64,000 nt of DNA. It comes from Eledone cirrhosa (taxonomy: Eukaryota). Of the stretch, positions 2,111 to 30,190 are shown piece after piece. Below the pieces are notes generated by a model. The model saw nothing but the letters and a program-made list of their open reading frames with translations. It was not told where the DNA came from and did not search any database. Both the position numbers and the translations under genes were made by a program. The stretch covers positions 49,414,001 to 49,478,000 of the forward strand of contig OZ024744.1 of assembly GCA_964016885.1 (NCBI GenBank), given 5' to 3'. Each line of letters begins with the position of its first letter. The first letter of the stretch is position 1.

Positions 2111-3454
2111 GCACATGCGGTAGGGGCCAGCATAAAACTAACCCTTAAGGAACATATGTTCAAATTTAATGGAAAAACATATGCCCAAGAGGAAGGAGCA
2201 GCAATTGGTGTTAGCATTGCAGGCGACATAGCTAACTTATTCATGGTATGGTGGGACAGTAGACTTAAACTTAAAGAACAATTAGAAGACAGCTTAACCC
2301 TGATAATGTACTCCCGCTACGTAGATGATATAAACATCGTAGTTAAGACACGCCCACTAGAGAACAGTCAGGAACTAGAGAAAAACAATGGAAAGCATCC
2401 AGCAAATAGCAAACTCCATCCACCAGAGCATTAGAGTTACTATAGACTACCCAAGTAGACACCCCAACCATCGATTACCTGTACTAGACACAGAGCTCTG
2501 GTTAGATACCATTAACAACCAAAAACAAATCCTCCATTCCCATTATGCCAATCCCATGACTTCCAAACATCTGATCCACCGAAACTCGGCCATTTCGGAC
2601 CATACCAAAATCAACATATTGATTGCGGATTTGGTACGGGTGATGAGAAATGTGTCCCGCATGTGCAACCCCGAAGAACTAGAGAGACACATACAACACT
2701 TCATCCACTGTATGCAGTTCTCTGGCTACAATCAGAGAGATAGAATCAGAGTGTATAGAGGAGCCAGAACCAAATGGGAAAAAATGGTAAATAATGACAT
2801 AAATGGGACCTGCCCCTTGTATAGGAGCAAATTTTGGAATAGAATAGAAAGAACAAGGAACAAGGCTAATAGAATAAACTCATGGTATGATAGCAATACA
2901 TACCAGAGTGTAATGTTCATCGATACAACCCCTAGAGGCGAACTAGCCTACAAATTTAGAAGGGCCCTAAATAAACATAAACTCAATATTAAGATAGTAG
3001 AAAGACCAGGTACCTCCGTAAAAACACTTATTAGCAAGACATACCCTTTTCAAAGACCCTCATGTATAGATAAGAAATGTATAACCTGTAAAATAAGCCC
3101 CCATATTAACTGTAAAACTGTAAAACTAGAAATGTAGTGTATAGCATAAGATGTACTGAAGGACAATGTAGAAACAAAAATATAGTGTACATAGGTGAGA
3201 CAGCTCGTAGTATAGGTGAACGGATAAATGAACACTGGCGAGACCTTCAAGATAATAAAGAATCATCTGTACTCTACCAACATGCTAAGATAAAACACAA
3301 GGGTAAATTAGAGAACATAGAAATAAAAATAGAATCTACACACAGAAAAGATGGAATGTTTAGACAAATTACAGAGGCAATAAACATAAAAGAATTACAA
3401 CCAAAATTAAATAGAAAATATGAGTGGAACAGCAACATCACAACTTATAATTAA
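2111..3454 (+). pseudogene. frameshifted PLE reverse transcriptase + GIY-YIG endonuclease
   Basis: FKFNGKTYAQEEGAAIG, YSRYVDD, LPVLD and YSIRC..C..YIGETARSIGERINEH motifs; frameshifts near 2385 and at an 8-nt duplication (tgtaaaac, 3111-3126) that the 58640 copy lacks. Confidence 0.92.
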
Positions 3455-10107: not shown

Positions 10108-11819
10108 ATAACTTTGAATAACTTTGAAATGTTTTGGTCAGTATTGGCCCAGGCCATGTCTAACTTAATAGCACCACCTGGCGAAGTCTTTCAATTCAGG
10201 ATTTGGGCACCATGGCCCATTCGAGAAGAGAATTACTGTTTGCGGAGACATATCCGGGTGTGGGTGGTTTGTCCGGGATTACTTGGAGGAATTTGTCCAA
10301 AGACTTCTTGAATTTTGTGTGGTCAGTTTCTGTTTTGACGTGTCCTGGTGTGATGTTGAAGAGAGCAGGGCCGATTGAGGTGAAATAATTGTGCCGTATT
10401 GTTGTTATGAGTTGCGATTTAGATTTTTGAATGGGACGGATAGCACGGGGCCCAAGCCTTGGGTGTATCTTAAAGGCGATGCCAACATCATTGGGCAGTG
10501 ATGATGGAACATTTTCCACATCATGCAGATAATATAACGCTCACGGCGACGTTGGAGTGAGTAAAGTTTCAGGTTTTCCAATCGACCCCAGTAGTCAAGG
10601 TCTGACATGCCATCTATCTTTTTCGTGATTGCCCTTTGAGGAGCTTCAAGTTTCATGATACTTTGTTTCGTGTGGGGAGACCACAGTGGACAACAGTATT
10701 CAAGGTGTGGTCGGGCGAAAGTAGAGAAGAGAAGGATAATGGTGCGGGAATCTCTCGACTGGAAGGTTCTGAGGATCCAGGAACACATTCTGCGGGCCAT
10801 GTCAACTTTGCTGCTTATATGCGTGGTCCAGCTTATGTTGCTGTCCACGGTTACTCCCAAGTCTCTGATGTTGTTAGATGCCACGAGAGTTTCCCCGGAG
10901 GGAAGGGAGTACGGGAGTTTCAGAGCATCCTCTTTTCCAAAGTGGATCAGTTCGAATTTGTCTTCGTTCAGTAACATGTTGTTCTTTTCTGCCCATTGGG
11001 TAACAGCCAGTAGGTCTGACTGAAGGCTTATCCGGTCATCCACGCCATTGATGACCTTTTGGAGCTTGGAATCATCAGCGAAATTTTAATGTTGCTGTGT
11101 TTGATGATGTCAGTGATGTCATTAATATAGATGATGAAGAGAAGTGGGCCCAACACAGTGCCTTGTGGGACTCCACTACTGACTTTGGCTGGGCTTGATT
11201 TGACTCCCTCAACTACAACATGTTGGGTTCTGTTTGACAGGAAGCTCTTGATCCACTGCAGCAGCTTTCCAGTGACACCAATATTGGCAGCTTTCTCAGT
11301 AGAATGTTATGATCAACCCTGTCAAAGGCCTTGCTGAAATCAAGGTAGATAACATCAGTGTTGGAACCCTCTCCCAAGGCTCTCAAAATGTCATCAAAGT
11401 GATGCAGTAGTTGCGTCAGGCAATCCCTTCCATTACGGAATCCATGCTGGTTGGAGTTCAGCATATTGTTACTCTCAAGGAAGTGGGTCATTCGCGATCT
11501 CACCACTCGCTCAAATACCTTAATGATATGAGAGGTGAGTGAGATTGGACGGTAATTCACGGCAAGGGATTTGTTTCCCTTTTTGAAAACTGGGACAACA
11601 GACTGGGATAGAAGGTTTTCTGGCACATATCCAGCATCCAGTGAGTTCCGCCACAGATTGGCAAGAGGAGAAGCAAGTTGGTGTTGACACGCCTTCAGGA
11701 CACAAGCAGGGAACCTATCGGGACCTACTGCTGAATTATGCTTGATTTCCTTTATTGCCGCCAAGACATCAGGGGCGCCAAACGTTATGTCCGATAAGGT
11801 GTAATGGGGAGTAACATCG
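10108..11819 (-). mobile_element. CR1-group LINE family C, 5'-truncated and frameshifted RT
   Basis: [32 protein letters not shown] motifs split over ORFs 11213-12172, 10405-11043 and 10196-10519; near-identical to 28342-30055. Confidence 0.92.
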
Positions 11820-12661
<842 letters not shown>

Positions 12662-13669
12662 TGCAACAACATCCCTCACTAGCTATGCTGATGACACTAA
12701 GGTAGCACAGGCAATCAAAAACCCGGCTGACGCTGCCCTCTTACAGCAGGATCTGGATGCCATATACAGATGGGCGGAAGAAAACAACATGCAGTTTAAT
12801 GCTGGCAAATTCCAAGCCCTACAATACAAACCTGCAAACACAAACACAAATATAGCGGAACACAGCTACACAGGACCAGGAGGGACCGATATCCCCGTGT
12901 CAAAATCGATACGAGACCTGGGCATAGACATGAGCGATGATGCATCTTTTTCTTCACACATCATGAAGGTGGCGACAGCATGTAGACGATTCGCTGGCTG
13001 GATCTTGAGGACTTTCCTTACAAGAGATCGAGACACCATGTTGACACTGTGGAGGACTTTTGTCCTAAGCCGCCTGGACTACTGCTCCCAGCTGTGGTCA
13101 CCCCATAGTGTCAAACTAACCACAGAGCTTGAGGCAATCCAGCGAAGCTACACCAAGAGGATTGCCAAGATGAGGGAGACAAGCTACTGGGAGAGGCTGA
13201 AGGAACTGAACCTCTACTCCTTGGAGCGAAGACGGGAGAGATACGCAGTGATCTACATGTGGAAAATCCTGGAGGGACTAGCACCAAACTTTGGCATTGG
13301 GAGCTGGACCAACCGTCGAACAGGACGTCACTGTGTGGTGCCAAAGGTCCCGTCTTCCACATCTAGAATAAGGAGCAGGTATTGCAATAGCCTGGGATTC
13401 AAGGGCCCTCAACTCTTCAACAGGCTGCCGAGGCATCTGCGAGACTTGCATGACGTGGAGGTGGATGTCTTTAAGAAACATCTCGACACCTTGTTATCCA
13501 GGATCCCGGATGAGCCCACAGCAAGACACGAGGGAAACCTAAGGGCAGCAGCAACAAACTCCCTCCTACACCAGTGGCCAACCTATACAGGCTGGAGATA
13601 AAATGTGTAGCAACAAGGGCGGTGCCCCAGCATGGCCTCAGCCGGATGGCTGAAACAGGTAAAAGAGTA
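12662..13669 (+). mobile_element. CR1-group LINE family D, 5'-truncated
   Basis: [35 protein letters not shown]; tail ggtaaaagagta. Confidence 0.92.
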
Positions 13670-14444: not shown

Positions 14445-16452
14445 TAAGATCAAAAGATGGTTAAAGGAGTTCCATGTATTTTATTATGTGCATTTCAAAA
14501 ACAAACATCATCATGCAATAATATTTGTTTTTTCATCAGATAAAACAGGAGAACATGATATGAAGGCTAAAAAACACTTGTGGATAGTGCAGTTTTAAAT
14601 CAACATATGAAAAGTAGTTTTAGATTGATGTGTGACATTGGGAAAAATATTTTATTTAGAGAGGGGGGTGGGTGGAAAGGATGAAAAAAGGGGAGAGATG
14701 AGAGTGAAGGTGGAGAGGGAGAGATGGGTGATAGAGAGAAAGAGATAGTTTTTATAACTGAGAGAAGATATATTGTTTTACATAGAGAGGTTGAAAACCG
14801 TTGGAAGATAATGTATAAATTAAAAGAATTTGAAAATTAACGAAGGGAAAAATATGTACGAGGAAAAAATATTTTATTTAGAGAGGGGGGGTGGAAAGGA
14901 TGAAAAAAGGGGAGGAGATGAGAGTGAAGGTGGAGAGGGAGAGATGGGTGATAGAGAGAAAGAGATAGTTTTTATAACTGAGAAAAGATATATTGTTTTA
15001 CATAGAGAGGTTGAGAACCGTTGGAAGATAATGTATAAATTAAAAGAATTTGAAAATTAACGAAGGGAAAGAGAGGGAGTTGATATGTATTGAGATTAAA
15101 AAGTTTGAAGATAGAGAGAAAAAATAATAATTGCGGATGAATGTTCTAACGTCAAAAAGGTGTATGTTTATAAGTATTATGGCAATTTCAAAATTAACGA
15201 AGAGAAAAGTTTGATGATGGAGAGAAAAAATAATAATAATTGCGGATGAATATTCTAACGTCAAAAAAACAAATGTATATGTTATGAAGGATTTTACAAG
15301 GTGAAGATAGAATGAGGGTAATGAGTAAACAAGTATTATAGAGTGTATAATGCCCTTTGAAGTAAGGTAGGAAGATGGGTATATTTTAAAGAGGTGTATG
15401 TATGTGTGCCTTTGAGAAAAGATTCTAAATTGATAAAGAATTGAATATTAGCTGTATACTTTGTGAAAAGTCCTATGGAATTTATGCAGGCAGATAGAAA
15501 ACAAATCTGTACGTTATAGAATCTAGATTAGAGATAATGGTAAATTTTTCATTTAGGCAGAGATTACAGATTTTAGATAGAGAGCTGTTCAAGTATGAGG
15601 ACGCAGAAGAAACCTTCTTCCAAAAGATGGTATATTTAATGTTTTTGTCTTTCAAGGACCATATTAGTTCTGAGAGAGCCGTGTTGGTTCTTTTAAGTTT
15701 GTATTTAAAAGATGAATGATGATTATAGAGACGAGCTTTAAAAGAGGTGGAAGTGGAGCCAAAATAGGTGAAGGAATTGGTGCTAGTTATAACTTTACAT
15801 TCATAAATTAAGTTTTTATCAAGACAATGGTTGTTGAGAGGACATTTATTTTTAATGCGGCAGTTGCAATTAGAGAGATTATCAACTTCTCTATGTAAAA
15901 CAATATATCTTTTCTCAGTTATAAAAACTATCTCTTTCTCTCTATCACCCATCTCTCCCTCTCCACCTTCACTCTCATCTCCTCCCCTTTCCTCATCCTT
16001 TCCACCCCCCCTCTCTAAATAAAATATTTTTTCCTCGTACATATTTTTCCCTTCGTTAATTTTCAAATTCTTTTAATTTATACATTATCTTCCAACGGTT
16101 TTCAACCTCTCTATGTAAAACAATATATCTTCTCTCAGTTATAAAAACTATCTCTTTCTCTCTATCACCCATCTCTCCCTCTCCACCTTCACTCTCATCT
16201 CTCCCCTTTTTTCATCCTTTCCACCCACCCCCCTATCTAAATAAAATATTTTTCCCAATATCACACATCAATCTAAAACTACTTTTCATATGTTGATTTA
16301 AAACTACACTATCCACAAGTGTTTTTTAGCCTTCATATCATGTTCTCCTGTTTTATATGATGAAAACACAAATATTATTGCATGATGATGTTTGTTTTTG
16401 AAATGCGCATAATAAAATACATGGAACTCCTTTAACCATCGTTTGATCTTAT
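14445..16452 (-). mobile_element. 5'-truncated PLE (probably Hydra clade) with a ~570-bp inverted pLTR
   Basis: 14445-15014 is inverted at 15881-16452; the GIY-YIG coding region lies between; UTR has ~220-bp and ~110-bp tandem repeats. Confidence 0.85.
15482..15880 (-). pseudogene. GIY-YIG endonuclease fragment of a PLE
   Basis: CNCRIKNKCPL..CL, LIYECKV..YFGST, FKARLYNHHSSF, LSELIWSLK, CNLCLNEK; the CxCx5C motif fits Hydra-clade PLEs as I recall them. Confidence 0.85.
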
Positions 16453-16542: not shown

Positions 16543-18471
<1,929 letters not shown>

Positions 18472-18588
18472 TAATAAGAGGAATTCCAACTTTGTCTGAT
18501 TTACTCGTTTTATTTACAATCCTTTAAAATATATATAATGGTATTATAATGAAATAGTATGATAGAATATTAAATTCTAAGTGTTAAT

Positions 18589-18627
18589 TGAACAAGTACT
18601 TTCATGCTTTCGCAATCTTCAGGTTCA
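18589..18627 (-). ncRNA. minimal hammerhead ribozyme (inverted pLTR)
   Basis: reverse complement of 19303-19341. Confidence 0.85.
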
Positions 18628-19302
18628 TGATATGTGGTGACAGTCGAGTTTGCAATTTTCAACTGTAATGAGATGGGTAAATTTCCTACCTTTTATACAT
18701 TTTATACAGAGAAAAGTGGCTCCAGAATGCAAAGCCCTGTAAACTGTATTTCGACCAATCAGTGTGTAGTTTCACTGAATTACTACAGCTGATTGGTTTA
18801 AGCGTCACGGCTGGTTGAGCATGCTAACGACCAATAGTCATATCCAACGTATCAATTGTTTTGCTTTTTTGAAATGATGAAAATAGCATTTTCTATTAAT
18901 CATCACCATCAACATCACTTTTATTATTATTATTATTGTTGTTGTTGTTGTTGTTAGTGGTCGTGGTCATAGTGGTAGTAGAAGTAATACCCCTAGGCGT
19001 TATTATTGTTCATTTAGCTTGGGTTTGAATTTATCAATAAAATTCTTTTCTTTGATTTCAAAAAAGCAAAACAATTGATACGTTGGATATGACTATTGGT
19101 CGTTAGCATGCTCAACCAGCCGTGACGCTTAAACCAATCAGCTGTAGTAATTCAGTGAAACTACACACTGATTGGTCGAAATACAGTTTACAGGGCTTTG
19201 CATTCTGGAGCCACTTTTCTCTGTATAAAATGTATAAAAGGTAGGAAATTTACCCATCTCATTACAGTTGAAAATTGCAAACTCGACTGTCACCACATAT
19301 CA

Positions 19303-19341
19303 TGAACCTGAAGATTGCGAAAGCATGAAAGTACTTGTTCA
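19303..19341 (+). ncRNA. minimal type-I hammerhead ribozyme (5' pLTR)
   Basis: tgaac CTGAAGA t tgc gaaa gca t GAAA gtac TT gttca; GNRA-capped stem II, palindromic AAGTACTT stem III, CUU site. Confidence 0.88.
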
Positions 19342-19545
19342 ATTAACACTTAGAATTTAATATTCTATCATACTATTTCATTATAATACCATTATATATA
19401 TTTTAAAGGATTGTAAATAAAACGAGTAAATCAGACAAAGTTGGAATTCCTCTTATTAATATAATCTTCTATACACAATCATACACACCCGTGTATATTT
19501 ACCTATCTATATCTATATATATATTCCTATTGTGTATATGCCAAC

Positions 19546-20895
19546 ATGTCTGGAAAGCAACAAATGAAACCAACAGAATCAGAAAGAATTCTAAAGGAGA
19601 TATCATCGAAATTATCAACACTTATCACGATGATGGACACACAATCCTCTATTTTAAAGGAAATAGAAAAACAATCTACAGACGGAAAACTTATAACTGA
19701 ACATATAAACTCTGAAATTAAGAATTTAGCTGAAATTATACCAACAGTTATCAAAGATACAAGAGAAAGCCTACCACAACCCCCTTGGATGTCAGAAATA
19801 AACGAAAGAAATTTGGAAAACAAAACACATCGAATAAGAAAAGAAATGTGGAAGACATGGAAAAAATTCCTTAACATAAGAAAACAAAATTTCTGGAAAG
19901 CATACAGATGCGAAAAATATGTCGAAACACATTCGAAATGGCTCTCTCTAACGGCACCCATACTCCCTCGTAAATACCTAATTACAGAAATTGCAGGAGA
20001 ACCAGAAGAAGAAACAAAACTCCGATGGGAACTTACATTGACAAAATTCAGGACCGACATCTCCATTTCTGAATGTAAACAATCCCGCTACAAAGCCAAA
20101 TATGAAGCTATTGATGACCAAATTGAAGTTGAAATTTCAAAGCTAACTGCTGGTATTATAGCTGAAAAACTACGAGAACTATGGATCGGAGATATCTCAA
20201 AAGAAGAAAACAAATCGAGAAAGGTATGGCAGCAGAAACAATTATTTCTCGATGAATATGCTGCAAATTACGGTAAAGACTCTGGAACCCTGAGAAAAAG
20301 CATTAAAAGTGGACAATCTCATCAACACAACATACGCCAGAACACGTGCCAACACAAACACTCACCTTACCTTGAATCAAAGAAGAACTACGGTAATAAC
20401 TCTTCGCTTTTTCTACAAAAACACCCTATCGCACACAACATGAACAAAAAGCACAAACACGATAGGTATTCCTTTGACCAGACCATGAGAAGTAGTAAAA
20501 CCAGGAGATCATTCTCAAGATCTCAACAGAGACTACCAACAAGGAATGTGGAAACAAAACGTAGAATAACCAGATCACTCTCAAGATCTCAACAGAGATT
20601 GCCCACAAGAAACTGGACGAAAAAACGATCTAAACCTGAAAGCAAACCTAGGTCATTTTCCCAGATTGTTAAAAATAATGCTAACAGGAAGAAAAATAAT
20701 ATACAGAATACCAAAAATAGGACAAAATACATAACGAAACCAAATATAATATCACGACCAAAAGTTCATCAAGCGAACACCAACAGGAATATAAATCCTG
20801 AACAGAGAAAAATTCATTTTTTAACGTCAGGACAACAAAAACCGGAAAAAGAAAAACTCCAGGAGGAAACATACCCAAAACAGCTGTACACGTAG
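19546..20895 (+). CDS. PLE ORF1, 449 aa: helical/coiled-coil N-terminus, basic R/S/K-rich C-terminus
   Basis: uninterrupted 1350-nt ORF in AT-rich DNA; starts ccaacATG just after the pLTR; duplicated SRSQQRLPTRN repeat. Confidence 0.85.
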   Translation: MSGKQQMKPTESERILKEISSKLSTLITMMDTQSSILKEIEKQSTDGKLITEHINSEIKNLAEIIPTVIKDTRESLPQPPWMSEINERNLENKTHRIRKEMWKTWKKFLNIRKQNFWKAYRCEKYVETHSKWLSLTAPILPRKYLITEIAGEPEEETKLRWELTLTKFRTDISISECKQSRYKAKYEAIDDQIEVEISKLTAGIIAEKLRELWIGDISKEENKSRKVWQQKQLFLDEYAANYGKDSGTLRKSIKSGQSHQHNIRQNTCQHKHSPYLESKKNYGNNSSLFLQKHPIAHNMNKKHKHDRYSFDQTMRSSKTRRSFSRSQQRLPTRNVETKRRITRSLSRSQQRLPTRNWTKKRSKPESKPRSFSQIVKNNANRKKNNIQNTKNRTKYITKPNIISRPKVHQANTNRNINPEQRKIHFLTSGQQKPEKEKLQEETYPKQLYT

Positions 20896-23129
20896 ATCCT
20901 AAAATAATTAATTTATCTAAAAGAGATCTTGACAATGATGAAATGCAAATTCTGTCAAAAGGACTGAAATTCACACCGACTCCAACAGTCAACCACCAAG
21001 AACTGAAGGAGGATACCCAAGAATTCTGTCGAAAATTACGTCTTGTAGAATTCTTCGCTGATAAAAATAATGAGAGTGATGAATCACTAGTAAAGAATAA
21101 ATCAAATTTCACTCCGCCAAAAGGAAGAAATATCTATCTCGACCAATACATTGACATCCTGTCTAAATTTCCTCTTAGACATAATACTAATGTTAGGCCA
21201 AACATTAACAAATCAGAAATGTCTGCACTTAAACGTATACAAAATGATAAAACAATAATAATTAAACAAGCAGATAAAGGGGGTGCAGTTGTTATAATGG
21301 ATACTGAATACTACAAGGATTTGGTTGAGGAACAACTGAAAGACACAACATTCTATCATGAAATACCGTCAAATATAGACCACAACATCATGAAGAAGAT
21401 CAACAACCTGGCTTCAAAATACCACAACTCATTTACTGATAAGGAAAGAGACTACATCACCAATTTTGAGCCGAAACCCAGCAACCTGTATGGCCTACCG
21501 AAAGTTCACAAGTCAAAAGAAATACAACTGGCAGTAAGAGAACAAAACAGTGAGTACATTAAATTATTACACCCAAAAGACTTAAAACTTAGACCTATTA
21601 TAGCTGGTCCAACATGCCCCACTCACCGTCTAAGCAATTTTGTTGACATTATTTTGAAACCACTATGTATTCACATACCCAGTTTCATCCGGGATGATAT
21701 CGACTTCCTGTTCCATCTTCCCAAAACCACGGAAACGAATTCACTTCTACTCAGTTTTGATGTGGTAAGCCTTTACACCAACATTACACATGATTTAGGA
21801 ATAAAGGCGGTTAAATACTGGGTGGAAAAACATAGAGAAGTGATTCCCATTAGATTCACAGCGCCATTTATATTAGACGCAGTTAAACTTATTCTGGAAA
21901 ACAACACTTTCTTCTTCAATGGAAAGAATTACATCCAAATTAGAGGCACAGCGATGGGAACGAAGTTTGCTCCCGTTTACGCGAACTCTGTAATGGGATA
22001 CTTAGAACAACAACTCTACCAAGAAATAGAGGAAAAATATAGTACTGACTTTAGAAAGTACATTGAAAAATCTTGGAAGAGATACCTTGACGACTGTTTC
22101 ATCATCTGGACAGAATCTTTAGATACTCTGGATGAGTTCAATATCCTCCTGAATAACCTACACCCATCTCTCCAATTCACAAAAGAGATGAGTAGGACCA
22201 AATTACCATTCCTAGATATAATGATAATCAAAAACGACACCACCATTACCACGGATATATATTATAAACACACAGACACCCATCAATATCTGAATTTTAA
22301 GTCGTGCCATCCACCTCATACAAAACGCAACATCCCATACTGCCTAGCCAGAAGAATTTGTACCATTGTAGAAGATACGAATACCAGGTACAAACGCCTA
22401 ACAGAACTAAGAGAATTTTTGCTCAAACAAAAATACCCATCTCTACTTATAGAAAATGGCATACAGCGGGCTATAAAAATACCTATACAACAACTTAGAA
22501 CAACCCAAAGAAGAAGAAACCAAGAACTGGTCATACCATTTATAATGACACACAACCCATGTCACCAGAATATCTTCAACACTGCCAAAGCAAACCTACC
22601 GATCATTGCTCAAAGTAATGAATTAAAAGGCTTAATCACAGATCGATCTTTGACTCTTAGTAAAAGACAGCCAAAAAATTTGAAGCAATTGCTAACAAAA
22701 GCAAAGTTTGACCTTAACAACAAAGACCAATCATTCACTGTATCTAAATGCAATGATAATCGATGCGGCACATGTCAATCCATACACGCCGGTCAATATA
22801 TGAAAACAAAAACTGGAAAAATATTCACAAATGCAAATATGAACTGCAAAAGCAGAAATCTAGTTTACTGCATTAAATGCCCGAATTGTGAAGAACTATA
22901 TGTCGGTCAAACTGGAAATGCACTATCGGAACGTGCACGGGTACACCGTCAACAAATCAGAGACCCAAATGTCCGTCAGATACCCCTAAGCGGCCACCTG
23001 GCAACATGTGGTCAGGGAATATTTATAATATTCCCATTCTACAAATTACACAGCCCAAATGAAATCAAGAGAAAAATCAAAGAAAAGAATTTTATTGATA
23101 AATTCAAACCCAAGCTAAATGAACAATAA
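20802..23129 (+). CDS. PLE reverse transcriptase + GIY-YIG endonuclease (first ATG at 20943; probably entered by -1 frameshift)
   Basis: KIINLS..ILSKGLKFTPTP, KQADKGG, YGLPKVHK, LRPII, SFDVVSLYTNI, GTAMG, RYLDD, CxxC, LVYCIKC..YVGQT; no internal stops; frame is open from 20802. Confidence 0.95.
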   Translation, partial: TEKNSFFNVRTTKTGKRKTPGGNIPKTAVHVDPKIINLSKRDLDNDEMQILSKGLKFTPTPTVNHQELKEDTQEFCRKLRLVEFFADKNNESDESLVKNKSNFTPPKGRNIYLDQYIDILSKFPLRHNTNVRPNINKSEMSALKRIQNDKTIIIKQADKGGAVVIMDTEYYKDLVEEQLKDTTFYHEIPSNIDHNIMKKINNLASKYHNSFTDKERDYITNFEPKPSNLYGLPKVHKSKEIQLAVREQNSEYIKLLHPKDLKLRPIIAGPTCPTHRLSNFVDIILKPLCIHIPSFIRDDIDFLFHLPKTTETNSLLLSFDVVSLYTNITHDLGIKAVKYWVEKHREVIPIRFTAPFILDAVKLILENNTFFFNGKNYIQIRGTAMGTKFAPVYANSVMGYLEQQLYQEIEEKYSTDFRKYIEKSWKRYLDDCFIIWTESLDTLDEFNILLNNLHPSLQFTKEMSRTKLPFLDIMIIKNDTTITTDIYYKHTDTHQYLNFKSCHPPHTKRNIPYCLARRICTIVEDTNTRYKRLTELREFLLKQKYPSLLIENGIQRAIKIPIQQLRTTQRRRNQELVIPFIMTHNPCHQNIFNTAKANLPIIAQSNELKGLITDRSLTLSKRQPKNLKQLLTKAKFDLNNKDQSFTVSKCNDNRCGTCQSIHAGQYMKTKTGKIFTNANMNCKSRNLVYCIKCPNCEELYVGQTGNALSERARVHRQQIRDPNVRQIPLSGHLATCGQGIFIIFPFYKLHSPNEIKRKIKEKNFIDKFKPKLNEQ
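20817..20823 (+). promoter_or_regulatory. candidate -1 ribosomal frameshift slippery site U_UUU_UUA
   Basis: ORF1 codons caT TTT TTA; a -1 slip enters the RT frame, which is open from 20802. Confidence 0.75.
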
Positions 23130-23507
23130 TAACGCCTAGGGGTATTAATTCTACTACCACTATGACCACGACCACTAACAACAACAACAACAACAATAAT
23201 AATAATAATAATAAAAGTGATGTTGATGGTGATGATTAATAGAAAATGCTATTTTCATCATTTCAAAAAAGCAAAACAATTGATACGTTGGATATGACTA
23301 TTGGTCGTTAGCATGCTCAACCAGCCGTGACGCTTAAACCAATCAGCTGTAGTAATTCAGTGAAACTACACACTGATTGGTCGAAATACAGTTTACAGGG
23401 CTTTGCATTCTGGAGCCACTTTTCTCTGTATAAAATGTATAAAAGGTAGGAAATTTACCCATCTCATTACAGTTGAAAATTGCAAACTCGACTGTCACCA
23501 CATTTCA

Positions 23508-23546
23508 TGAACCTGAAGATTGCGAAAGCATGAAAGTACTTGTTCA
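23508..23546 (+). ncRNA. minimal type-I hammerhead ribozyme (3' pLTR)
   Basis: identical to 19303-19341. Confidence 0.88.
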
Positions 23547-23720
23547 ATTAACACTTAGAATTTAATATTCTATCATACTATTTCATTATAATACCATTAT
23601 ATATATTTTAAAGGATTGTAAATAAAACGAGTAAATCAGACAAAGTTGGAATTCCTCTTATTAATATAATCTTCTATACACAATCATACACACCCGTGTA
23701 TATTTACCTATCTATATCTA

Positions 23721-24512
<792 letters not shown>

Positions 24513-26218
24513 CACTCTTTTACTCTTTTACTCTTTTACCTGTTTCAGCCATCCGGCTGAGGCCATGCTGGGGCACCGCCCTTGTTGCTACACATTTTAT
24601 CTCCAGCCTGTATAGGTTGGCCACTGGTGTAGGAGGGAGTTTGTTGCTGCTGCCCTCGTGTCTTGCTGTGGGCTCATCCGGGATCCTGGATAACAAGGTG
24701 TCGAGATGTTTCTTAAAGACATCCACCTCCACGTCATGCAAGTCTCGCAGATGCCTCGGCAGCCTGTTGAAGAGTTGAGGGCCCTTGAATCCCAGGCTAT
24801 TGCAATACCTGCTCCTTATTCTAGATGTGGAAGACGGGACCTTTGGCACCACACAGTGACGTCCTGTTCGACGGTTGGTCCAGCTCCCAATGCCAAAGTT
24901 TGGTGCTAGTCCCTCCAGGATTTTCCACATGTAGATCACTGCGTATCTCTCCCGTCTTCGCTCCAAGGAGTAGAGGTTCAGTTCCTTCAGCCTCTCCCAG
25001 TAGCTTGTCTCCCTCATCTTGGCAATCCTCTTGGTGTAGCTTCGCTGGATTGCCTCAAGCTCCGTGGTTAGTTTGACACTATGGGGTGACCACAACTGGG
25101 AGCAGTAGTCCAGGCGGCTTAGGACAAATGTCCTCCATAGTGTCAACTTGGTGTCTCGATCTCTTGTCCGGAAAGTCCTCAAGATCCAGCCAGCGAGTCG
25201 TCTGCACATTGTCGCCACTTTCATGATGTGTGAAGAAAAAGATGCATCATCGCTCATGTCTATGCCCAGGTCTCGTATCGATTTTGACACGGGGATATCA
25301 GTCCCTTCTGGTCCTGTGTAGTTGTGTTCCACTACATTTGCGTTTGCAGGTTTGTTTGGAGGTTTGTATTGTAGGGCTTGGAATTTGCCAGCATTAAACT
25401 GCATGTTGTTTTCTTCCGCCCATTTGTATATGGCATCCAGATCCTGCTGTAAAAGGGCAGCGTCAGCCGGGTTTTTGATTGCCTGTGCTACCTTAGTGTC
25501 ATCAGCAGAGCTAGTGAGGGATGTTGTTGTATGTACTACAGAGGGCATGACTGAGAGAGCCACCAAAAACAGTAGTGGTCCCAGGACTGTCCCCTGGGGC
25601 ACCCCACTTGTTATTGGTGTTTCCTTTGAGAGGGCCCCATTTGCTGCGACTGCCTGGCTTCTGTCCCTTAGGAAGCCATGCAGCCACTCACCTACTTTTC
25701 CAGTTATGCCGAGTCCGTGTAGTTTGTGACATATCATTCCGTGGTCGACCTTGTCAAAGGCCTTCGCAAAGTCAAGATATACCACGTCTACATGTGAGCT
25801 GTCTAGTAGTTGTCTCAGTACCCAGTCGTAGTGATGTAGCAGCTGTGTAAGGCAGCTTCTTTCTGGGCGGAAGCCATGTTGCGTGCTAGTCAGGTGGTCA
25901 TTTTCCTTGAGGAAAGTGATCAGTTTCTTTCTGACGACTCGCTCCATGACCTTACTGATATGCGACGTCAGGGAGACTGGCCTATAGTTTTTGGCCACCG
26001 CTCTGCTACCTCTTTTATGGATAGGGCATATTGTGCCTTCTTTCAGCTCCCTGGGTAGTACACCGCTAGCCAAGGAGCTTCTGAAGAGCATCTTCAGTGG
26101 AGTTGCTAAGGCCCGCTTACATATTTTTAAGAGAAGTGCTGGGAATCCATCAGGTCCAGCAGAAGAGTCTGTTCTAATTTCATCAATGGCGTACACCACA
26201 TCCTCCTTCGTTATGTCT
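24513..26218 (-). mobile_element. CR1-group LINE family D, 5'-truncated, RT motif mutated to SADD
   Basis: ORF 24520-26199: [41 protein letters not shown]; (TAAAAGAG)n tail. Confidence 0.93.
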
Positions 26219-26373
26219 ATGTATTTATATATATATGTATATATATGTATTTATATATATATATGTATATATATGTATTTATATATATATGTATATATAT
26301 GTATTTATATATATATATGTATATATATGTATTTATATATATATATGTATATATATGTATTTATATATATATG

Positions 26374-26794: not shown

Positions 26795-30055
<3,261 letters not shown>

Positions 30056-30190
30056 TTTGTTAGAGATGCCTACTGGCTGTAGTAGGTTTTACTATGTATT
30101 TAGGTAAGGCGGGTCTTCTCTGTTACTGAGTACCGCCAAAGGTCTCGGTCCAGTGACATTGTCTTGGAGAGGTGAGGTGTAAGTGTGTAC

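Follow-up and report, generated by a model that had tools for sequence, protein, structure and literature searches.

A conserved helical ORF1 and a probable −1 frameshift in a two-ORF Neptune-type Penelope-like element of Eledone cirrhosa

A young, two-ORF Penelope-like element (PLE) of the Neptune type is present in a 64,000-nt stretch of the genome of Eledone cirrhosa (assembly GCA_964016885.1, contig OZ024744.1, forward-strand positions 49,414,001 to 49,478,000), referred to here as the window. This element’s first open reading frame (ORF1) appears, on balance, to encode a Gag-like packaging protein that is likely made in excess over a fusion with the reverse transcriptase (RT) and endonuclease, generated by −1 frameshifting. 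ORF1 runs from ATG to TAG at 19546..20895 (+ strand) and specifies 449 amino acids (aa), as reported in the initial annotation, which was made from the sequence alone. That annotation suggested an RNA chaperone or ribonucleoprotein (RNP) scaffold analogous to the ORF1 protein (ORF1p) of LINE-1 (L1) or to nucleocapsid, and possibly regulated by SR kinases.

The element containing ORF1 is complete and bounded by (TA)n tracts. Two directly repeated pseudo-long terminal repeats (pLTRs), at 19055..19524 (5′ copy) and 23260..23729 (3′ copy) on the + strand, are identical at 469 of 470 nt, and an inverted pLTR at 18467..19058 (− strand) is an inverted partial copy of the element’s 3′ end. The second frame occupies 20802..23129 (+ strand; 775 aa from stop to stop), is −1 relative to ORF1, and matches two Pfam families, GIY-YIG (E 3.8e-6) and, short of the curated cut-off, RVT_1 (E 4.2e-6). 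In its RT protein (P0002), the endonuclease is preceded by a C-x4-C-x2-C linker, which fits the Neptune/Nematis definition in the available text of PMC8557442. Other features that the same text ascribes to the Neptune clade are likewise found here, i.e., an RT with a C-terminal GIY-YIG domain and a Cys-rich (CX2-5CxxC) linker, direct and inverted pLTRs, (TA)n flanks, and a hammerhead-like motif. Among named homologues, the nearest come from bivalves. In the source genome (3 Gb), at least 150 matches to the ORF1 core occur at 91–100% identity, and 42 of 150 matches hold the same 476-aa open frame, three of them with one internal stop. Many copies sit in pairs, inverted or tandem, or in arrays, as is typical where PLEs insert (L011/L012, L013/L015, L014/L025, L018/L019, and L026–L029).

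Where the element departs from canonical Neptune and other endonuclease-bearing (EN+) PLEs is in its two overlapping ORFs. The abstract of PMC8557442 presents canonical EN+ PLEs as single-ORF elements, and no such continuous ORF exists here. According to the legend of Fig. 1 in that paper, a coiled-coil ORF1 can be set off by a frameshift and a pseudoknot, with no clade named in the legend, and the two-ORF layout may already have been drawn there for Neptune; in the available part of its supplement, ORF1 is named only for two Chara elements. A 420-nt ORF1 of no assigned function is mentioned for a killifish Neptune in the portion of the literature at hand.

The two frames meet at a candidate −1 frameshift site that the initial annotation had missed, the slippery heptamer T TTT TTA (T6A) at 20817..20823 (+ strand). 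It has the X XXY YYZ form in the ORF1 frame, falls within the overlap, and is conserved. As U UUU UUA, we take it to be a heptamer of the HIV-1 type, as in retroviral Gag-Pol. T6A is intact in all 30 fetched copies of the junction (a set that counts the window itself and tandem pairs), with zero indels across 200 nt. An in-genome survey whose pattern was based on the RT motif alone, with no demand for the heptamer, yielded 30 loci, 29 of them PLEs; T6A was in the −1 frame at 20 of these 29, and at 13 of the 16 loci representing two families not selected for the heptamer. In an external survey of 16 loci from a metagenome scan, every locus with an ORF1 homologue (8/8) had T6A or T6G in the −1 frame. 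The signature is also evident in protein sequences, where Phe-Leu occurs within the final 45 residues of 71 of 88 homologue tails (shuffled mean 3.4, maximum 9). The residue ahead of it is never K, E, Q, M, or W, whose codons are unable to end in U (0/71, against a background of 22%). Phe-Leu lies 11 to 42 residues from the end of ORF1, with 11 as the minimum; the distance is 12 in 17 of the 71, values of 23–25 form a second cluster, and the window family has 25. The in-frame heptamer is kept by all 30 copies and recurs in other families and other species, so a gag-pol-like −1 frameshift likely joins ORF1 to the RT–endonuclease frame, giving a fusion of about 1,190 aa.

Several observations weigh against this reading. 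The heptamer is altered at four and out of frame at five of the 29 in-genome PLE loci, a decayed single-copy locus carries it in the RT frame, and external locus L147 lacks it. No clear stimulatory RNA structure was found after the heptamer, with raw energies of −2.6 to −5.8 kcal/mol over 50–90 nt; folds at this position in relatives are variable, pseudoknots being outside the model. As a separate observation, copies of family C (L047, L051, L058, and L085) differ in the length of a C-run located 3′ of the heptamer, and some of them are thereby shifted in frame.

A different origin for the U-run would be a splice acceptor, in which case most of ORF1 would be lost with an intron and a 5′ exon would be connected to the RT frame, with ORF1p made from unspliced RNA. 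In families B, C, D, F, and G the sequence is indeed T6AG, the AGs sharing one RT phase, and in the window family an AG of that phase follows 6 nt later; moreover, PLEs retain introns according to the available text of PMC8557442. However, no adjacent AG is present at L095, L099, or L172 (T6G), or at L105 or L109 (T6A-T), and the absence of an AG at several junctions speaks against an acceptor. In addition, the residue that follows Phe-Leu has no codon beginning with G in 23 of 70 proteins, and an acceptor need not keep the ORF1 frame, yet Phe-Leu is in frame in the 71 tails noted above despite their widely differing lengths. Splicing is thus very unlikely as an explanation.

It is also highly improbable that the RT is made separately, through termination–reinitiation or from a non-AUG start, so that ORF1p is never fused. 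The first ATG of the RT frame, at 20943, is downstream of the conserved IINLS motif. Family C has an RT-frame Met just ahead of IINLS, and 36 of 120 predicted RT proteins keep the motif, most beginning at a nearby Met as called. Nonetheless, no Met occurs between the heptamer and IINLS in families A, B, F, and G or in any of the eight external loci with a helical ORF1, and separate synthesis leaves the conserved, in-frame heptamer unexplained. A third alternative, in which a one-base indel has broken a single-ORF element and decay or assembly has produced ORF1 as an artefact, draws on the proneness of homopolymer runs to indels and on one predicted protein (P0028) annotated as a single chain. 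It is refuted by the in-genome survey, by the external loci, and by the 30 copies that all share a junction also common to other families and species; furthermore, no fused RT occurs among the best 120 relatives.

ORF1 is a gene separate from the RT. The best 120 RT relatives are no longer than 817 aa, even though 1357 were permitted, and none matches a hidden Markov model of the ORF1 core. A counterexample is P0028, which joins ORF1-like and RT parts; seen as a protein only, it retains Phe-Leu and skips IINLS, as a gene model would. Another predicted protein, P0138, has the RT ahead of ORF1, as in tandem copies, and is likewise seen as a protein only.

ORF1 belongs to a large family. A search with residues 1–266 against 1.84 billion representatives (E ≤ 0.001, clusters at 50% identity) returned 395 clusters, and the full-length homologues among the 150 matches listed are mostly 340–470 aa. 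The core is under purifying selection, with dN/dS between families of about 0.2–0.3 where dS is measurable, dS being saturated in many pairs. For example, dN and dS are 0.36 and 1.7–1.8 for B versus F, 0.40 and 1.4 for C versus F, and 0.80 and 2.8 for the window family versus B. The initial annotation had held that a lack of homologues or of purifying selection would undo its proposal; both are present. In a quick, unrooted RT tree of 33 rows without named references, elements with a helical ORF1 form one group (SH-aLRT 95), and those with a helical ORF1, an esterase-like ORF1, or a single ORF fall into three separate groups; lacking a root and named references, the tree gives no direction of change. 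No description of the helical family was found in the literature, including the available portions of PMC6431247, PMC5718144, PMC3846280, PMC6515669, and PMC5537684. The helical ORF1 family of two-ORF Neptune-type elements is real and apparently undescribed.

In ORF1p, an N-terminal heptad helix (aa 11–43; 19576..19674, + strand) is a predicted coiled coil based on AlphaFold and the family alignment, and a second helix spans residues 47–72 of the model. The heptad-like strings quoted in the initial annotation are present, and a 3–4 hydrophobic pattern at positions 16, 19, 23, 26, 30, 33, 37, 40, and 44 is seen in the 141-row family alignment; matches to coiled-coil profiles are weak (best E 0.014). 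The conserved core (aa 80–241; 19783..20268, + strand) is predicted to be an elongated three-helix bundle and includes conserved residues W105, R112, P141, K143, E152, D190, and W213. A Trp-containing middle region had been noted, and the five Trp residues at 105, 117, 132, 213, and 228 are 77–97% conserved in the same alignment. The AlphaFold model of residues 1–259 (pLDDT 90.4) is all helix with zero beta strands, and a structure search with it gave no specific fold match. As first reported, there is no named domain: Pfam gave nothing above cut-off for ORF1, and no Pfam family was matched by more than one of 141 members.

The core is followed by a basic, low-complexity tail that is presumed to be disordered (20281..20892, + strand). 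Its basic character was recognized from the outset; residues 311–449 contain 27% K+R versus 6% D+E, the pI from residue 310 onward is 11.8, and 87 of 88 homologue tails carry a net positive charge. The tail also contains two copies of the 14-aa unit RS(F/L)SRSQQRLPTRN, at 20506–20547 and 20572–20613 (+ strand), as the initial annotation had stated. This duplication, which was not seen in tails of the other related families examined, accounts for the enrichment of RS/SR dipeptides in the window tail (10 versus 5.0 expected, p = 0.018). Across family tails, 309 such dipeptides compare with a shuffled mean of 263 and maximum of 316, RSRS-type runs occur in just 10 of 88 tails, and neither a family-wide RS repeat nor an RRM, the marks of an SR/RS domain, is found in ORF1. 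Because family tails are only weakly RS-rich, “SR-like” describes the duplication in the window family and not the wider group, and the proposal of an SR-like tail under SR-kinase control is not supported as a family trait.

A second tail feature that was initially overlooked is a conserved motif, S/T-Y-A-x-V-V-K/R, represented in the window family by SFSQIVK (aa 370–376; 20653..20673, + strand). The strict pattern S/T-Y-A-x-V-V occurs in 46 of 88 tails (shuffles 0.3, maximum 3) and a looser one in 41 of 88 (shuffles 2.5, maximum 9). K or R then follows in 31 of the 46, a position outside the pattern. Comparable sequences are known from two proteins that bind RACK1 on the 40S subunit, namely CR2 of LARP4 (SYAEVC) and the RIH of ZAK, with key residues Y611, V615, and R616 (available parts of bioRxiv 10.1101/2024.11.01.621267, PMC12823453, and PMC13293227). 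The likeness comprises the S-Y-A-E-V core, the Y-x3-V-R spacing, and a location within a low-complexity region, and at the sequence level ORF1 tails present the S/T-Y-A-x-V-x-K/R arrangement of a RACK1-binding helix. They differ from LARP4 and ZAK in that about half of tails have the motif and the partner motif FPxL occurs in 1 of 150 proteins. By this analogy, the motif could possibly dock on ribosomal RACK1 and hold a new ORF1p beside its own mRNA, a proposal that falls a little short of an even chance. Counting against it, the strict pattern was written after the sequences were viewed; the motif is absent in the copies of families B, C, and F that were checked (those of B and C are broken) and in L095; and the window family has F in place of the motif Y.

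The core itself may be derived from single-ORF PLEs. In the metagenome scan, single-ORF PLEs were found to have a 135–175-aa domain ahead of the same NLS motif. The comparison set for this N-terminal domain (NTD) consisted of 16 metagenome loci (alignment A3) plus the Poseidon element PAc, with the clade name assigned by us. In the available text of PMC11167929, the corresponding region of PAc is a putative nucleic-acid-binding domain. The NTD model (pLDDT 91.3) has helices at 6–17, 19–50, 67–109, and 112–153, and its predicted helix pattern is nearly identical to that of ORF1: a long helix, a short turn after an IP motif, and two further long helices. Each sits just upstream of the NLS/KGL motif. 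As far as helix pattern and structural neighbours were compared, the top two neighbours are identical (3lg7_A and 1s94_B) and in the same register, and 17 of the 50 top chains are common. An NTD profile scored above 5 bits on 30 of 131 ORF1 cores versus 1 of 131 reversed cores, mostly with IP aligned on IP, although the cores are related to one another and the counts are therefore not independent. Unlike the NTD, ORF1 has a coiled coil, a 200-aa basic tail, and a frame different from that of the RT.

These comparisons slightly favour descent of the ORF1 core from the NTD of single-ORF Penelope/Poseidon-type proteins. Against such descent, the NTD–ORF1 profile–profile match is not significant (hhalign probability 0.9–2.7%, E about 0.05), block shuffles outscored the NTD match in 1 of 60 trials and in 3 of 40 with a deeper alignment, and three-helix bundles are a generic fold. 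Alternatively, a frameshift-fused ORF1p could have gained its core independently, as a helical module that serves in membrane, chromatin, or nuclear targeting and not in RNA packaging. This is unlikely given the net basic charge of nearly every tail and the gag-like position, which, together with a helix pattern and IP register matching the NTD, point to the role of the NTD. The initial annotation had considered that ORF1 might simply be the ordinary N-terminus of single-ORF Neptune proteins. Literally, it is not, as the lengths of the 120 RT relatives and their lack of the core indicate; in spirit the idea is half right, since the core is probably a single-ORF NTD split off by a frameshift.

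From its gag-like position and probable excess over the RT, the ORF1 product is probably an RNP scaffold. Of the original proposal, a separate, conserved, and selected ORF1 with a coiled coil and basic tail is supported, while the SR-like tail as a family trait is not. In the mechanism proposed here, most ribosomes would stop at the ORF1 stop codon to yield a basic, self-associating protein. ORF1p would self-associate via its predicted coiled coil and bind or coat element RNA via the helical bundle and basic tail. A minority of ribosomes would slip at the heptamer to make the ORF1–RT–endonuclease fusion, and the shared coiled coil would draw the fused enzymes into the same particle as ORF1p. 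The tail motif might tether new ORF1p to the translating ribosome, thereby favouring its own mRNA. A broader and rather doubtful scenario is that in a large PLE lineage the −1 frameshift turned the N-terminal RNA-binding domain of the ancestor into a Gag-like protein of its own, which also gained a coiled coil and a helix for docking on RACK1. Located on ribosomes of its own mRNA, ORF1p would then capture this RNA in cis, and where ribosomes queue behind the ORF1 stop it might also modulate its own frameshifting.

Parallels exist among other retroelements. L1 ORF1p is likewise encoded by a separate first ORF and has an N-terminal coiled coil (PMC3905857, in part). The comparison made at the outset holds only as an analogy, for the window ORF1 has no RRM, no beta strand in its model, and, relative to L1 ORF1p and Gag, neither a CTD nor a zinc knuckle nor a capsid fold. 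L1 makes no use of frameshifting. Athena/Terminon elements, which are EN-deficient PLEs, also possess an extra coiled-coil ORF (available text of PMC6431247). In a comparison of descriptions, the window element differs in having an endonuclease and in being dispersed. Athena is said to frameshift into its RT.

Esterases have been reported in Neptune-like PLEs (PMC5408684 and PMC3905857, as far as available), and the esterase ORF of these elements and ZfL2-1 ORF1p share with ORF1 a gag position, a coiled coil, and an Arg-rich stretch replacing the RRM. The window ORF1 differs in being all-helical, with no SGNH esterase domain and no Pfam match. In a separate PLE group (L105, L107, L108, L109, L113, and L116), ORF1 is long and of another type; it terminates in motifs resembling those of esterases (GDSN ... 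DGxH, read by eye) and gave no Pfam match in the five scanned. This ORF1 meets the RT at a −1 heptamer, T6A in four and TTTAAAC in two. FPxL is found near the N-terminus in three of the group, and in L116 Phe-Leu is just three residues from the ORF1 end.

PLE RTs form the sister group of telomerase, and EN+ PLEs are treated as one-gene elements in the literature available here. RT-only annotations that start at the internal ATG omit about 430 N-terminal residues. RNP assembly and cis-preference become directly testable through an ORF1 family hundreds strong that comes with a confident model, defined conserved positions, a site for frameshifting, and a candidate motif for ribosome docking. Should the core be the single-ORF NTD, it would illustrate the emergence of a gag-pol layout within a single gene. 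On sequence grounds, the frameshift is well supported and possibly already drawn in print, while the NTD origin and RACK1 docking are newer, testable proposals.

A minimal hammerhead-like motif was read by eye in the 5′ pLTR (19303..19341, + strand), where it consists of a 5-bp stem I, a CUGAAGA core, a short stem II, and a palindromic stem III. It is repeated at 23508–23546 in the 3′ pLTR and in the inverted copy ending at 18627, and no Rfam hammerhead match was obtained for it. PLE sequences also occur in contigs whose labels assign them to bacterial genomes or to symbionts (L172–L177, P0159, P0163, P0221, P0246, and P0266), most likely through contamination with host DNA. Elsewhere in the window, fragments resembling other PLE types are present at 2379–3137 (+ strand; RT thumb region) and 15482–16072 (− strand; GIY-YIG whose Cys pattern differs). 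Non-LTR RTs are represented by several copies or fragments among (TA)n tracts at 10405–12346, 24520–26250, and 28431–30059 (− strand) and at 12603–13601 (+ strand), with further RT fragments spread over 32536–54660.
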